Part shown: in pieces, positions 15,001 through 21,000 of the stretch
How positions within the stretch are numbered: position 1 is the stretch's first letter
Layout of the letters: every line of letters starts with the position of its first letter
Origin: Escherichia coli
Lineage (GTDB): Bacteria; Pseudomonadota; Gammaproteobacteria; Enterobacterales; Enterobacteriaceae
Length of the DNA: 64,000 bases
Assembly (NCBI RefSeq): GCF_013122565.1
Contig: NZ_CP053258.1
Direction: 5' to 3' (one strand)
Position numbers: made by a program

Positions 15001-18000
15001 TTCTCAACGGCGACAAAATTATCTGCTCGCGTCTGAAACGCGAAGAAACCCTAAAAGTTCCTTCGCCAGATACCATTATCCAACTGGGCGATTTGCTGCA
15101 TCTGGTGGGTCAGCCAGCGGATTTACATAATGCGCAACTGGTGATTGGTCAGGAGGTCGATACTTCGCTGTCCACGAAAGGCACTGATTTGCGCGTCGAG
15201 CGTGTGGTGGTCACCAATGAAAACGTGCTTGGTAAGCGTATTCGCGACCTGCATTTTAAAGAACGCTATGACGTTGTTATCTCGCGCCTGAACCGTGCCG
15301 GGGTCGAACTGGTCGCCAGTGGCGATATCAGCCTGCAGTTCGGCGATATTCTCAACCTGGTGGGGCGTCCGTCCGCAATTGATGCCGTTGCCAATGTGCT
15401 GGGAAATGCGCAGCAAAAACTGCAACAGGTTCAGATGCTGCCAGTGTTTATTGGCATCGGGCTTGGCGTATTGTTAGGTTCTATTCCCGTCTTTGTGCCT
15501 GGGTTCCCGGCCGCGTTGAAACTGGGGCTGGCGGGCGGTCCGCTGATTATGGCGTTGATCCTCGGGCGTATCGGCAGTATCGGCAAGCTGTACTGGTTTA
15601 TGCCGCCAAGCGCCAACCTCGCGCTGCGGGAACTGGGGATCGTGCTGTTCCTCTCGGTCGTTGGTCTGAAATCTGGTGGGGATTTTGTGAATACCCTGGT
15701 CAATGGCGAAGGGCTAAGCTGGATTGGTTATGGTGCCCTGATCACCGCCGTTCCGCTGATTACTGTTGGCATTCTGGCGCGGATGTTAGCCAAAATGAAT
15801 TACCTGACCATGTGCGGGATGCTGGCTGGCTCCATGACCGATCCTCCGGCGCTGGCGTTTGCTAATAATCTTCATCCAACCAGCGGTGCGGCGGCGCTCT
15901 CTTACGCCACTGTCTATCCGTTAGTGATGTTCCTGCGCATTATCACCCCCCAATTACTGGCGGTGCTCTTCTGGAGTATCGGTTAACTCTTTTCCGGGTG
16001 GAGTCGCCGTAAATGGTACTCCACCTGGTATTCGCTGGCATTTCTGAACATCACTGAATAATTCAAAAACTCCCCGCTCTCGCTATATGACAACGAGGTG
16101 ATCCGCAGCAGTGGCGTGTGTTCCGCTACCTTCATTTGCCGCGCCAGCAGTCTATCGGCGAGCACCGGCGTCAGGCTTTCATAATTACCGCCAATCAAAA
16201 TCCCGCACTCTTGTTCAATATATTCAAACTTCGACCCTTCCAGATGTTGCAGAGAAAGGTTACGGAACAGTTTTACCGGCATATAGCTGTCTTCCAGCAT
16301 CAGCGGTTTCCCTTCCACAAAACGAACGCGACGGGAGAAGTAGATCTGCTCGTTGATTTGAATCCGTAACTGGCTGGCAATGGCCGGAGGCGCAGGCATG
16401 ATTTCAAAAATCAGCACCTGGCTGGTGACCGTTTTTCCCTGCCGTTTTAACACCTCCACCAGCCCGGTCAGACTGGCGGTTTGATGCAGTACATCTTTGC
16501 GCACCAGGTAAGTGCCACTACCGTGGCGGCGGACCACCAGCCCCCACGCTACCAGCAGGTCAATGGCTTTACGGATGGTCATCCGCGATACCGCAAACTC
16601 TTCCGCCAGCTTTTTTTCACCGGGAAGAAGGCTGTTTAGCGTGAAATCCGCGGAGTTAAGTCGAATTCTTAACCGCTCCGCAATGCTTTTGTAGATCATC
16701 TCTAGATCTCTTTTTTGCCTGCAAGCCCGGGTAATGCGCCCACAAGTTCTGCTTAATCGATTGAAAAAAACATCTTTTTTTTAAAGATGTGTTCGATGCT
16801 GTGTACCTGTGCTCACAGAGGTCTACTTTTTCGCGAAAACGTAGATCTCTACCGCCCAACGAAAAGCATGAAAGCGATCACGAATCCCATTGGGTCGTCA
16901 TGTTCTGCCGATCGCATCTTCCTATCCTCGCTCCAGGCCTGCCGCATAACCAATCAGGCTTCCTACTTACAGAATTGAGAAAAGAGGATGTGGAAATGCT
17001 CAGTCAAATTCAACGCTTTGGCGGCGCGATGTTTACGCCAGTGCTGCTGTTTCCCTTCGCCGGGATTGTGGTGGGTCTTGCCATCTTGCTGCAAAACCCG
17101 ATGTTTGTCGGGGAATCACTGACCGATCCAAACAGTTTATTCGCGCAAATCGTACACATTATTGAAGAGGGCGGTTGGACGGTATTCCGTAATATGCCGC
17201 TGATTTTTGCTGTCGGTTTACCCATTGGCCTTGCTAAGCAAGCGCAGGGGCGTGCTTGTCTGGCGGTGATGGTGAGTTTCCTGACCTGGAACTATTTCAT
17301 CAACGCGATGGGAATGACCTGGGGAAGTTACTTCGGCGTCGATTTCACTCAGGACGCGGTGGCAGGTAGCGGTCTGACAATGATGGCCGGGATTAAAACC
17401 CTCGATACCAGCATTATCGGCGCAATTATCATTTCCGGCATTGTGACGGCGCTGCATAACCGTCTGTTCGATAAAAAACTGCCGGTTTTTCTCGGCATTT
17501 TCCAGGGGACGTCTTATGTGGTGATCATCGCCTTCCTGGTGATGATCCCCTGTGCCTGGCTGACATTGCTCGGCTGGCCAAAAGTACAAATGGGGATTGA
17601 ATCTCTGCAAGCGTTCCTGCGTTCGGCGGGTGCGCTTGGGGTGTGGGTTTACACCTTCCTCGAACGTATTCTGATCCCAACCGGTTTACACCACTTCATC
17701 TACGGACCGTTTATCTTTGGTCCGGCAGCTGTTGAAGGCGGCATTCAGATGTACTGGGCGCAGCATCTGCAAGAGTTCAGTTTGAGCGCCGAGCCGCTGA
17801 AATCGTTGTTCCCGGAAGGCGGTTTTGCCCTGCACGGTAACTCAAAAATCTTTGGTGCCGTGGGCATTTCTTTAGCGATGTACTTCACTGCCGCACCGGA
17901 AAATCGGGTAAAAGTGGCGGGCTTGCTGATCCCCGCAACCTTAACCGCCATGCTGGTGGGAATTACCGAACCGCTGGAATTTACCTTCCTGTTCATTTCA

Positions 18001-21000
18001 CCGTTGCTGTTTGCGGTACACGCTGTGCTTGCGGCCTCAATGTCGACCGTAATGTATCTCTTTGGTGTGGTGGGCAACATGGGCGGAGGTCTGATTGACC
18101 AGGTTTTACCGCAAAACTGGATCCCGATGTTCAGCAACCACGCGGATATGATGCTGACCCAAATCGCCATTGGGTTGTGCTTTACCCTGCTGTACTTCGT
18201 GGTTTTCCGCACCCTGATTCTGCAATTCAACATGTGCACGCCGGGACGTGAAGATGCGGAAGTGAAACTCTACTCAAAAGCCGAATACAAAGCCTCGCGA
18301 GGCCAAACCACCGCGGCAGAGCCAAAAAAAGAGCTGGATCAGGCTGCCGGTATCCTGCAAGCCCTGGGCGGGGTCGGCAATATCTCCAGCATTAACAATT
18401 GCGCGACGCGTCTACGTATTGCACTGCATGACATGTCACAAACGCTGGATGACGAAGTCTTTAAAAAGCTGGGAGCGCACGGCGTCTTCCGTAGTGGCGA
18501 TGCCATTCAGGTGATCATTGGTCTGCATGTATCCCAGCTGCGTGAACAGCTCGATAGCTTAATTAATTCTCATCAATCAGCAGAAAATGTTGCCATTACG
18601 GAGGCAGTATAATGACCAAATTCTCAGTGGTTGTCGCAGGCGGTGGAAGCACCTTTACGCCAGGCATCGTGTTGATGCTCCTGGCGAATCAGGACCGTTT
18701 CCCGCTTCGTGCACTGAAATTTTATGATAACGATGGCGCGCGGCAGGAAGTGATTGCCGAAGCCTGTAAAGTCATCCTTAAAGAAAAAGCGCCGGACATT
18801 GCGTTTAGTTACACCACCGATCCTGAAGTGGCGTTCAGCGACGTTGATTTTGTCATGGCGCACATCCGCGTCGGCAAGTACCCGATGCGCGAACTGGATG
18901 AAAAAATCCCGCTGCGCCACGGCGTTGTTGGACAGGAAACTTGCGGACCCGGCGGAATAGCGTACGGCATGCGTTCCATTGGCGGCGTCCTGGAACTGGT
19001 GGATTATATGGAAAAATATTCACCAAACGCCTGGATGCTCAACTACTCCAATCCGGCAGCCATTGTCGCAGAAGCCACGCGTCGTCTGCGCCCGAATGCG
19101 AAAATCCTCAACATCTGTGACATGCCAATCGGTATTGAAAGCCGGATGGCGCAAATTGTTGGGCTGCAAGATCGCAAACAGATGCGCGTGCGCTACTACG
19201 GCCTGAACCACTTTGGCTGGTGGACATCAATTGAAGATTTGCAGGGCAACGACCTGATGCCCCAGCTGCGGCAATATGTCTCGAAGCACGGTTATGTTCC
19301 ACCTCAGCAAGATACACATACTGAAGCGAGCTGGAACGACACCTATGCAAAAGCGCGGGATGTCCAGGCACTGGACCCGGATACATTACCAAACACCTAT
19401 CTGAAATATTATCTCTTCCCGGATTATGTCGTTCAGCATTCCAACCCTGAACATACCCGCGCGAATGAGGTGATGGAACATCGCGAGAAACAGGTTTTCG
19501 ATGCTTGCCGCGCCATTACGGCGGCAGGAAATTCAGCGGCGGGCAAGCTGGAAATTGACGAACATGCGTCATACATCGTCGATCTGGCGGCGGCAATTGC
19601 CTTCAACACCCAGGAGCGGATGTTGCTGATTGTGCCTAACAATGGGGTAATCCATAACTTTGATGATGAAGCGATGGTCGAGATCCCGTGTCTGGTCGGG
19701 CACAACGGACCAGAACCACTGGTGGTCGGCGATATCCCGCAGTTTCAGAAAGGGTTAATGAGTCAGCAAGTGGCGGTGGAAAAACTGGTCGTGGACGCCT
19801 GGGAACAGCGTTCATATCAGCACCTGTGGCAGGCGATTACGTTGTCGAAAACGGTACCGAGCGCCTCGGTCGCCAAAGCTATTCTGGATGAGTTGCTGGA
19901 GGCCAACAAAGCGTACTGGCCAGAGTTACGTTAATTGTGTGGACTGGCATCCGTTGGGTGCTGGTCCGTATTCTTTAGCACGGCTGACGGCGCATAACCA
20001 AATTTATGTTTAAAGGCTTTGCTGAAATGAAAGGAGTCGAAGAAGTTGAGCGTATCAGCGACTTCGCCAACCGAGTTTCCTTGTTGCTTTAATAGCGATA
20101 GCGCCAGATCCAGACGCGCATCGAGGTAATATTCTTTCGGCGTCTTGCCGGTATAGCGTAAAAACAGACGACGCAACCAGGCTTCGCTACAGGGGATCGT
20201 GGCAGCCATATCAGCTACGCTCCAGCGTTGTTGCAGACTGGCATGTAAAGTGGCAATTAATTTTTCAATTTGCCGCCGTTGTGGATCTTTTTTACCGTCT
20301 GCGTACATAAGACAAATCCACTGATAAATAATTTTCGTCAGAAAAGCGACTGCCAGATTATTTTTTATTGCTTCTGGTGAAGTTATTAACTCAGCAACTT
20401 CGGTGAGTTCCTGATTATAAATTTCGCCATTGTAAATAACGCTTTGCTGACCAACGGGAATATCCATCATACTGGTGGGGGTAAATTCCATCCAGTACTG
20501 TTCCCAGACTAAACCTTCACAGTGATAAGAGTGAATATCCATTGGCTTTAAAAATATAATACAGTTGCCATGCAGAGTTATTTGTTCGCCATTCTTTAAA
20601 AGAATTTTCCCACATCCTTGTACGGTATACACCGCAACCCATGAGTTGGCGATAAGCGGTTTCTTCTTGTCCCGCGGCCAGATCACCCGGTAATGCTCGT
20701 CGGCGTAGGTATGCCAGAGCGAGATAAGAGAAATTCCGCTGGAGATCACATTTTCGTTAATCAATAAGGGAATATTGTACGGAGTTTCGTTTTTTACATC
20801 TGAACTTTGCAATTTTCCATTCATTTTAATATCCCTCCGGCGAATTATGCTCACAACCTGAACTTAACAGAAAACAATCCGTTCAGGGATACGACGTTTG
20901 TATTTTAAGAATCTGACTGCCTGACCCGACGCATTTTACCTCTCCCTATATTCATGCGTCCGGGACATAAACATAAATAAGGGCTATGAGATGAATTCGT

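Follow-up and report, generated by a model that had tools for sequence, protein, structure and literature searches.

We analysed a stretch of 64,000 nucleotides of the Escherichia coli contig NZ_CP053258.1 (assembly GCF_013122565.1), referred to here as the window, which carries the glv locus, and find that its glvBC and glvG genes are full-length, possess all conserved motifs, are orthologous and syntenic with the agl cassette of other enterobacteria, and are under purifying selection. We consider it likely that this is the ancestral, undamaged E. coli counterpart, by orthology, of the alpha-glucoside phosphotransferase system (PTS) operon known as aglA/aglB in Klebsiella pneumoniae (malP/malA, equivalent to glvC/glvA, in Bacillus subtilis) and that it works in the manner proposed below. 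An intact operon of this type is already known, being ancestral, common and annotated in RefSeq, and the defect of the K-12 genes is textbook knowledge. An earlier note on this DNA had described the genes as intact and fused; the first term is appropriate, but the second is misleading, as a single chain of enzymes IIC and IIB (EIIC-EIIB, or IICB) is the ancestral form and has been split in K-12 by one amber codon. The features on which the argument rests are the following.

16996..18612, + strand: glvBC, a single-chain PTS EIIC-EIIB permease of the alpha-glucoside-specific subfamily, 538 aa, without an EIIA domain (open reading frame (ORF) list, Pfam, TIGR02005).
18100..18102, + strand: codon 369 of glvBC, CAG (Gln), which in K-12 is TAG (amber) through a C to T change at 18100 (comparison with MG1655).
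18400..18402, + strand: codon for Cys469 in the EIIB CATRLR motif, the presumed phosphorylation site, aligned with the Cys of PtsG CITRLR.
18612..19934, + strand: glvG, a full-length glycoside hydrolase family 4 (GH4; NAD+/Mn2+-dependent) 6-phospho-alpha-glucosidase, 440 aa (ORF list, Pfam, alignments with 6DUX and 1U8X).
19213..19720, + strand: a 508-bp segment kept here and deleted in K-12 and many other E. coli, flanked by an 8-bp direct repeat.

The plus-strand reading frame is open from 16789 to 18612, and an in-frame ATG at 16996 begins a protein of 538 aa (MLSQIQRFGG...), in agreement with the single IICB ORF containing CATRLR that had been described at this position. The same N-terminal residues are found in the orthologues from Enterobacter and from a Klebsiella-like contig, and thus 16996 is the real start; a Shine-Dalgarno sequence (AAGAGGA) lies 7-8 nt 5' of this ATG, and a GTG at 16789, which would give a 607-aa ORF, was ruled out on both grounds. 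The polypeptide runs uninterrupted from EIIC to EIIB with no internal stop, and at 538 aa is close to the 540 aa of its orthologues. Pfam places PTS_EIIC (PF02378) at residues 10-346 (3.7e-71) and PTS_EIIB (PF00367) at 453-482 (2e-12), and these matches, like those of GlvG, are far beyond chance. Across its whole length the TIGR02005 profile (AglA and MalP/GlvC type) is matched well above the curated cut-off (959.2 bits against 607.3; residues 2-523 on profile positions 1-524 of 524), while the NCBIfam models for glucose, N-acetylglucosamine, MalX, beta-glucoside and trehalose permeases all fail, and nearly all of the approximately 120 top homologues are annotated as alpha-glucoside-specific IIBC proteins of about 540 aa. 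The motifs GLHH (230-233), GITEP (322-326) and CATRLR (469-474) are all present, with the EIIC GITE and the EIIB C-x-T-R-L-R cysteine aligning to their counterparts in PtsG; from established knowledge of PTS EIIB(Glc) domains, we take Cys469 to be the residue that is phosphorylated. The alignment with EIICB structures of PtsG, the E. coli glucose permease (PDB 8QSR and others), covers residues 3-530 and the two proteins share the EIIC-then-EIIB order as well as GITE, GLHH and C-x-TRLR, but PtsG is a distant paralogue (199 bits, with GlvBC below the glucose-model cut-offs) of different specificity and without a linked hydrolase. An identical GlvBC protein is found in strains ES5, O157:H7 and IAI39, where it is annotated as WP_000952127.1, and on at least 1000 contigs. 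In the NCBI annotation pipeline (PGAP) the full chain of 538 aa carries the name 'PTS sugar transporter subunit IIB', because the NCBIfam model NF007255 was built on the K-12 GlvB fragment.

The start codon of glvG overlaps the glvBC stop by 1 nt (TAATG) and GGAGG lies 9 nt 5' of it; the two genes are co-oriented and translationally coupled. That a full-length 440-aa family 4 glucosidase directly follows the permease, as first noticed, is thus upheld. Both GH4 domains are complete, with Glyco_hydro_4 (PF02056) at residues 6-184 (profile 2-182 of 183, 1.9e-66) and Glyco_hydro_4C (PF11975) at 195-415 (profile 1-211 of 211, 1.3e-55), as in the 6-phospho-alpha-glucosidases GlvA, AglB and MalH. GlvG is collinear from end to end with solved enzymes of this specificity, aligning without gaps to 6DUX (residues 1-439, 915.7 bits, 89.3% identity) and to Bacillus subtilis GlvA, 1U8X (residues 3-439, 437 positions, 748.7 bits, 72.8% identity). 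Together with the complete span of TIGR02005 by GlvBC, these alignments reveal no frameshift or truncation relative to functional homologues. In an alignment of GlvG with 77 diverse full-length GH4 representatives, E109, N147, C169, H200, Y263 and R283 are each conserved in 75 of the 77, and all are present in GlvG, as are D170 (Asp or Asn in 69 of the 77) and an N-terminal GGGS at 10-13; the Gly-rich NAD+ motif, the Cys and His ligands, the adjacent Asp and the conserved Tyr are therefore all in place. In published work on GlvA and BglT, Mn2+ is bound by the Cys and His, and the redox-elimination mechanism of the family involves the Asp and Tyr. The RefSeq name for the protein is 6-phospho-alpha-glucosidase.

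These comparisons bear also on whether the system could be specific for arbutin or another beta-glucoside rather than for alpha-glucosides, as the legacy K-12 designation of an arbutin-specific PTS would have it. The names 'Arbutin specific PTS permease' (PMC2617782) and 'putative arbutine PTS' (PMC12412646) are in use, and the Joint Genome Institute (JGI) name for homologues is 'PTS system arbutin-like IIC component'. However, GlvBC passes the alpha-glucoside model TIGR02005, its scores with the models for beta-glucoside IIABC and for cellobiose/arbutin/salicin being only 45 bits (cut-off 615) and 43 bits (cut-off 722), respectively, and NCBI names its orthologues alpha-glucoside-specific. 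GlvG, at 89% identity to a solved 6-phospho-alpha-glucosidase, scores 916 bits there as against 210 for GH4 6-phospho-beta-glucosidases, and no beta-specific GH4 enzyme exceeds 210 bits. We regard a beta-glucoside specificity as extremely unlikely.

The MG1655 annotation lists glvC (368 aa), glvB (161 aa) and a glvG pseudogene, bearing out the statement in the earlier note that these genes are disrupted or cryptic in K-12, with a separate glvB. Base-by-base alignment with the K-12 glvCBG region reveals exactly two lesions, both in K-12 and neither in the window. The first is the amber at codon 369, through which the permease is broken in two, a 'GlvC' of 368 aa and a 'GlvB' of 161 aa that starts at Met378; as this codon falls before the last EIIC membrane segment in the alignment to PtsG, the K-12 'GlvC' is a C-terminally truncated EIIC, and 'GlvB' comprises the last membrane segment, a linker and the IIB domain rather than a natural soluble IIB. 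The second is the 508-bp deletion, which is bounded by the 8-bp direct repeat GAACCACT at 19205-19212 and 19713-19720, such that removal of 19213..19720 from the window gives the K-12 junction exactly. It begins just after GlvG His200, so that residues 201 onward, including the C-terminal domain, are lost and the frame is shifted. The window has CAG at codon 369 and retains the deleted segment, and does not belong to the K-12 type of disrupted locus on either count. The K-12 genes b3683, b3682 and b4556 (glvC-glvB-glvG') otherwise occupy the same locus with the same neighbours, with 99.0% DNA identity over the shared parts; the shared coding sequence has 21 substitutions besides the lesions, 19 of them at third codon positions, and glvBC has 14 synonymous differences and one non-synonymous. 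The K-12 state is thus derived, by one amber codon and one 508-bp deletion, and the small number of mostly third-position differences indicates that the K-12 glv genes died recently.

The gene order in the window (ibpB, yidE, divergent yidP, glvBC, glvG, convergent yidL, yidK, yidJ) is that of the E. coli glv locus, and the arrangement ibpA-ibpB-yidE, a divergent GntR-type gene, a 540-aa IICB gene and a 440-aa GH4 gene recurs at this site both in Enterobacter (CP080000.1) and in the Klebsiella-like contig. The presence of the same cassette in both argues that the single-chain permease is ancestral. Their IICB proteins are 80-82% identical to that of the window, the alignment being gapped solely in the linker between IIC and IIB and at the C terminus, and their GH4 proteins are 88-89% identical to GlvG without gaps; that of the Klebsiella-like contig is 96.4% identical to PDB 6DUX. 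PDB 6DUX and 6DVV are structures of AglB, the K. pneumoniae enzyme.

The aglA/aglB system of K. pneumoniae is accordingly the closest point of comparison. It shares with the window the IICB-then-GH4 order, the divergent GntR and UTRA regulator and the site downstream of ibpAB-yidE, while GlvG is 89.3% identical to 6DUX and GlvBC about 82% identical to the Klebsiella-like orthologue; the differences are those of species, a sequence divergence of 11-20% and a diverged control region, and the substrate range and inducibility of the E. coli proteins are predictions. Like AglA, GlvBC lacks an EIIA domain, and dependence on EIIA-Glc is hence expected. In the B. subtilis glv (mal) system, GlvA/MalA (1U8X) and GlvC/MalP likewise combine an NAD+/Mn2+-dependent GH4 phospho-alpha-glucosidase with an EIICB permease. 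There the order is glvA-glvR-glvC with an RpiR-type regulator, whereas E. coli has the permease before the hydrolase and a divergent regulator of the GntR/HutC type. The passages of PMC5309279 that cite Pikis 2006 and Thompson 2001 report that K. pneumoniae AglA and AglB let E. coli K-12 use isomaltose via its endogenous EIIA-Glc, and that the K-12 glv homologues are regarded as cryptic or truncated. B. subtilis GlvC also functions with E. coli EIIA-Glc (PMC5309279).

By analogy with these systems, GlvBC would be a single EIIC-EIIB membrane protein that takes up alpha-glucosides and phosphorylates them on O-6 of the glucosyl unit, with sucrose isomers, isomaltose, maltose, maltitol and methyl-alpha-glucoside as candidate substrates. 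The phosphoryl group would pass from phosphoenolpyruvate through enzyme I, HPr and EIIA-Glc to Cys469 of the IIB domain; since GlvBC has no EIIA domain it would have to use EIIA-Glc (Crr), which is encoded elsewhere, with crr, ptsH and ptsI lying outside the examined part of the window. GlvG would then cleave the 6-phospho-alpha-glucoside to glucose-6-phosphate and the aglycone, using NAD+ and Mn2+, and the divergently encoded GntR/HutC regulator YidP probably represses the operon. The substrate range, the use of Crr, regulation by YidP and actual expression are all predictions drawn from knowledge of the family and from PMC5309279. The suggestion in the earlier note of a system for uptake and hydrolysis is therefore supported by the homologue alignments, with 'functional' to be understood as predicted; the state is not special to this strain, as about 30% of complete E. 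coli genomes keep the segment deleted in K-12.

This figure comes from a search of 5426 complete E. coli genomes, in which alleles were counted as exact 60-mer matches. The glv locus is present in 4283 of these, and 1652 keep the segment deleted in K-12; the window 60-mer around codon 369, with CAG, is found in 3722, and the K-12 amber 60-mer in 348, mostly K-12 laboratory derivatives. In about 30% of the genomes glvG is thus undeleted, in about 48% it carries the deletion, for the most part with CAG still present at codon 369, and about 21% are without the locus. An example of the last state is NZ_CP148423.1, which lacks yidP-glvBC-glvG as a clean block and has some 90 bp between yidE and yidL; glvC is also listed among 'Absent' genes by Touchon 2009 (PMC2617782), with a table footnote denoting the phylogroup B2 strain E2348/69. 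In RefSeq both glv genes are intact coding sequences (CDSs) in ES5, O157:H7, IAI39, BL21 and 2017-02-2CC. Neither glvBC nor glvG has an internal stop or frameshift in the window or in five other strains, and when the window is compared pairwise with five intact alleles, the ratio of non-synonymous to synonymous substitution (dN/dS) is 0.00-0.03 in glvBC and 0.03-0.07 in glvG, at dS values that reach 0.14, which points to sustained purifying selection on both genes.

Three further features flank the two genes.

15983..16699, - strand: yidP, a divergent GntR/HutC-family regulator, 238 aa, with a GntR helix-turn-helix and a UTRA domain (ORF, Pfam).
16700..16995, no strand assigned: the yidP/glvBC intergenic control region, 296 bp, with an inverted repeat and a conserved block.
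19931..20824, - strand: yidL, a convergent AraC-family regulator, 297 aa from the annotated ATG (ORF, Pfam, annotation).

YidP matches GntR at 6.8e-21 and UTRA at 1.2e-30, and its gene is annotated as yidP in E. coli genomes. A GntR and UTRA gene occupies the same divergent position in Enterobacter and in the Klebsiella-like contig, its product being 75-78% identical to YidP, and from this position YidP is probably the repressor of the operon. An inverted repeat at 16817-16850 (GTCTA...TAGAT), with 17-nt arms that are 88% complementary, is a candidate YidP operator. In an alignment of the Enterobacter and Klebsiella-like control regions with that of the window the GTCTA/TAGAC arms are conserved across the three genera, as is a neighbouring block of 30 nt (AAAACCATGAATGCGATCACGAATC) at approximately 16862-16892. 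A CRP-like site at 16802-16817 (two mismatches, the sole intergenic match) was considered and set aside as no more than chance, since the window contains 32 such matches where 25.8 are expected. Rfam gave no match over 15900-21000 at E<=1, and thus no known leader or riboswitch is present there.

Small variations were also observed in and around these regions. An A-run at about 16764, in the yidP/glvBC intergenic region, has one A more than in K-12, a 1-nt length polymorphism. ES5, which is 99.4% identical to the window over the glv region, differs from it by a single 1-nt indel, and this lies in neither glv coding sequence as both CDS lengths are unchanged. In BL21 (NZ_CP060121.1) glvBC and glvG are intact and yidP is annotated as frameshifted; if YidP is a repressor, BL21 might express the operon constitutively. 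The gene yidL adjoins the GH4 gene in the Klebsiella-like contig and is missing from the Enterobacter CP080000.1 locus, and is therefore not a constant part of the cassette; a connection of yidL with the glv system is at most putative. In the window the stops of glvG and yidL overlap at 19931..19934 (TTAA, which reads as TAA from either strand), so that neither a spacer nor a terminator separates the two genes.

Several observations weigh against the proposal of an intact and working operon, and the first of these concern GlvG. No NCBIfam equivalog model reaches its cut-off with this protein; the only matches are to the alpha-galactosidase model PRK15076 (181 bits, cut-off 486) and to AglA (70 bits, cut-off 650), with no 6-phospho-alpha-glucosidase model among them. 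In addition, residue 346, within an N-N-G-A-I stretch, is Val in the window, whereas the other E. coli alleles examined, five in number, and each of the five solved GH4 structures aligned have Ala. The exact window allele has already been deposited and is rare, occurring on approximately 15 contigs, so the genes could merely look intact, with a missense change, in particular A346V, inactivating the enzyme and leaving the strain functionally like K-12. Column 346 nevertheless varies within the family (Ala 43, Thr 6, Ile 5, Val 5, Cys 5 and Ser 4 of the 77 GH4 representatives), which argues that Val is tolerated; all near-invariant GH4 residues are unchanged, and GlvBC has exactly the sequence of the protein that is commonest in E. 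coli. Val346 is the only peculiarity of the window allele, and from this alignment it is probably harmless; we judge inactivation by A346V or another missense change to be highly unlikely. Strain 2018-05-2CC (AP027877.1) has a GlvG otherwise identical to that of the window in which the first codon reads Ile instead of ATG, a start-codon variant that may lower translation.

The remaining points on this side concern use of the operon. The genes are readily lost within the species, with about 2600 genomes carrying the glvG deletion and about 1140 lacking the locus, and such frequent loss fits dispensability. No sigma-70 consensus promoter occurs in 16600-20100, where 3.2 are expected in shuffled sequence, and expression may for this reason be weak, activator-dependent or silent. 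Nor did the literature searched, of which the coverage was incomplete, contain experimental work on an intact glv operon of E. coli; apart from Touchon 2009 it yielded only legacy mentions of the K-12 genes. Cryptic operons have precedents in the bgl, asc and chb beta-glucoside systems of E. coli. The glv operon might similarly be intact but ordinarily silent in transcription, and play a role in growth only once it had been activated by mutation, for instance by loss of YidP or by a change in the promoter. Besides the missing promoter, this would be consistent with the intact repressor-type yidP next to the operon, with the palindromic control block TGCGATCACGAATCGCA, conserved in the Klebsiella-like contig and Enterobacter and degenerate in E. 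coli (AGCGATCACGAATCCCA), with repeated gene loss, which fits weak or intermittent selection, and with BL21, in which both glv genes are kept intact and yidP is frameshifted. On the other hand, the dN/dS of 0.00-0.07 at dS up to 0.14 reflects long-term purifying selection, to which an operon that was never expressed would not be subject, and the scan for consensus promoters is crude and blind to those that are activator-dependent. We therefore consider ordinary silence possible but not probable, and prefer an operon that is intact and in use.

The distribution of alleles raises a separate question. Approximately 2000 genomes seem to keep the CAG permease allele without the hydrolase (3722 with the 60-mer and 1652 with undeleted glvG, as judged by the 60-mer only), and an orphan EIICB would accumulate phospho-alpha-glucosides unless it were silent or served another role. 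It is conceivable, albeit rather doubtful, that the three-way polymorphism is adaptive and not just neutral decay, with intact strains exploiting alpha-glucosides in the gut and hydrolase-less strains repurposing the transporter. If so, the sugars open to intact strains could be alpha-glucosides and sucrose isomers from the diet (isomaltulose, trehalulose, isomaltose), and the roughly 2000 CAG genomes without the hydrolase would retain the transporter for another role.

Elsewhere in the window, 20000..44000 finds no closer counterpart among the 5426 genomes than one of 98.1-98.2% identity over 24 kb, and none reaches 99%, suggesting that the window comes from a poorly sampled E. coli lineage or is mosaic. 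A single ORF of 3613 aa at 45022..55863 (+ strand) contains at 48475..53706 18 tandem copies of a 291-nt (97-aa) unit with an 87% match. Pfam identifies in it the beta domain of inverse autotransporters (IAT_beta, 5.7e-108) and, after this, 21-24 Ig-like repeats of the Big_1/Invasin_D3 type and Invasin_D4, and by these predicted domains it is a giant intimin/invasin-type adhesin.

The importance of the intact locus is mainly one of annotation. The glvC/glvB/glvG' arrangement of K-12 is a defect of a strain lineage and not the E. coli gene structure, and the names 'PTS sugar transporter subunit IIB' and 'arbutin-specific' attached to the 538-aa protein are inherited from that defect; the glv gene content is catalogued in RefSeq for about 1650 complete genomes. 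If the operon is expressed, growth of such strains could extend to sugars closed to K-12, namely sucrose isomers, isomaltose and related alpha-glucosides, which would bear on gut-niche differences between E. coli lineages and on the use of industrial starch hydrolysates (cf. PMC5309279).

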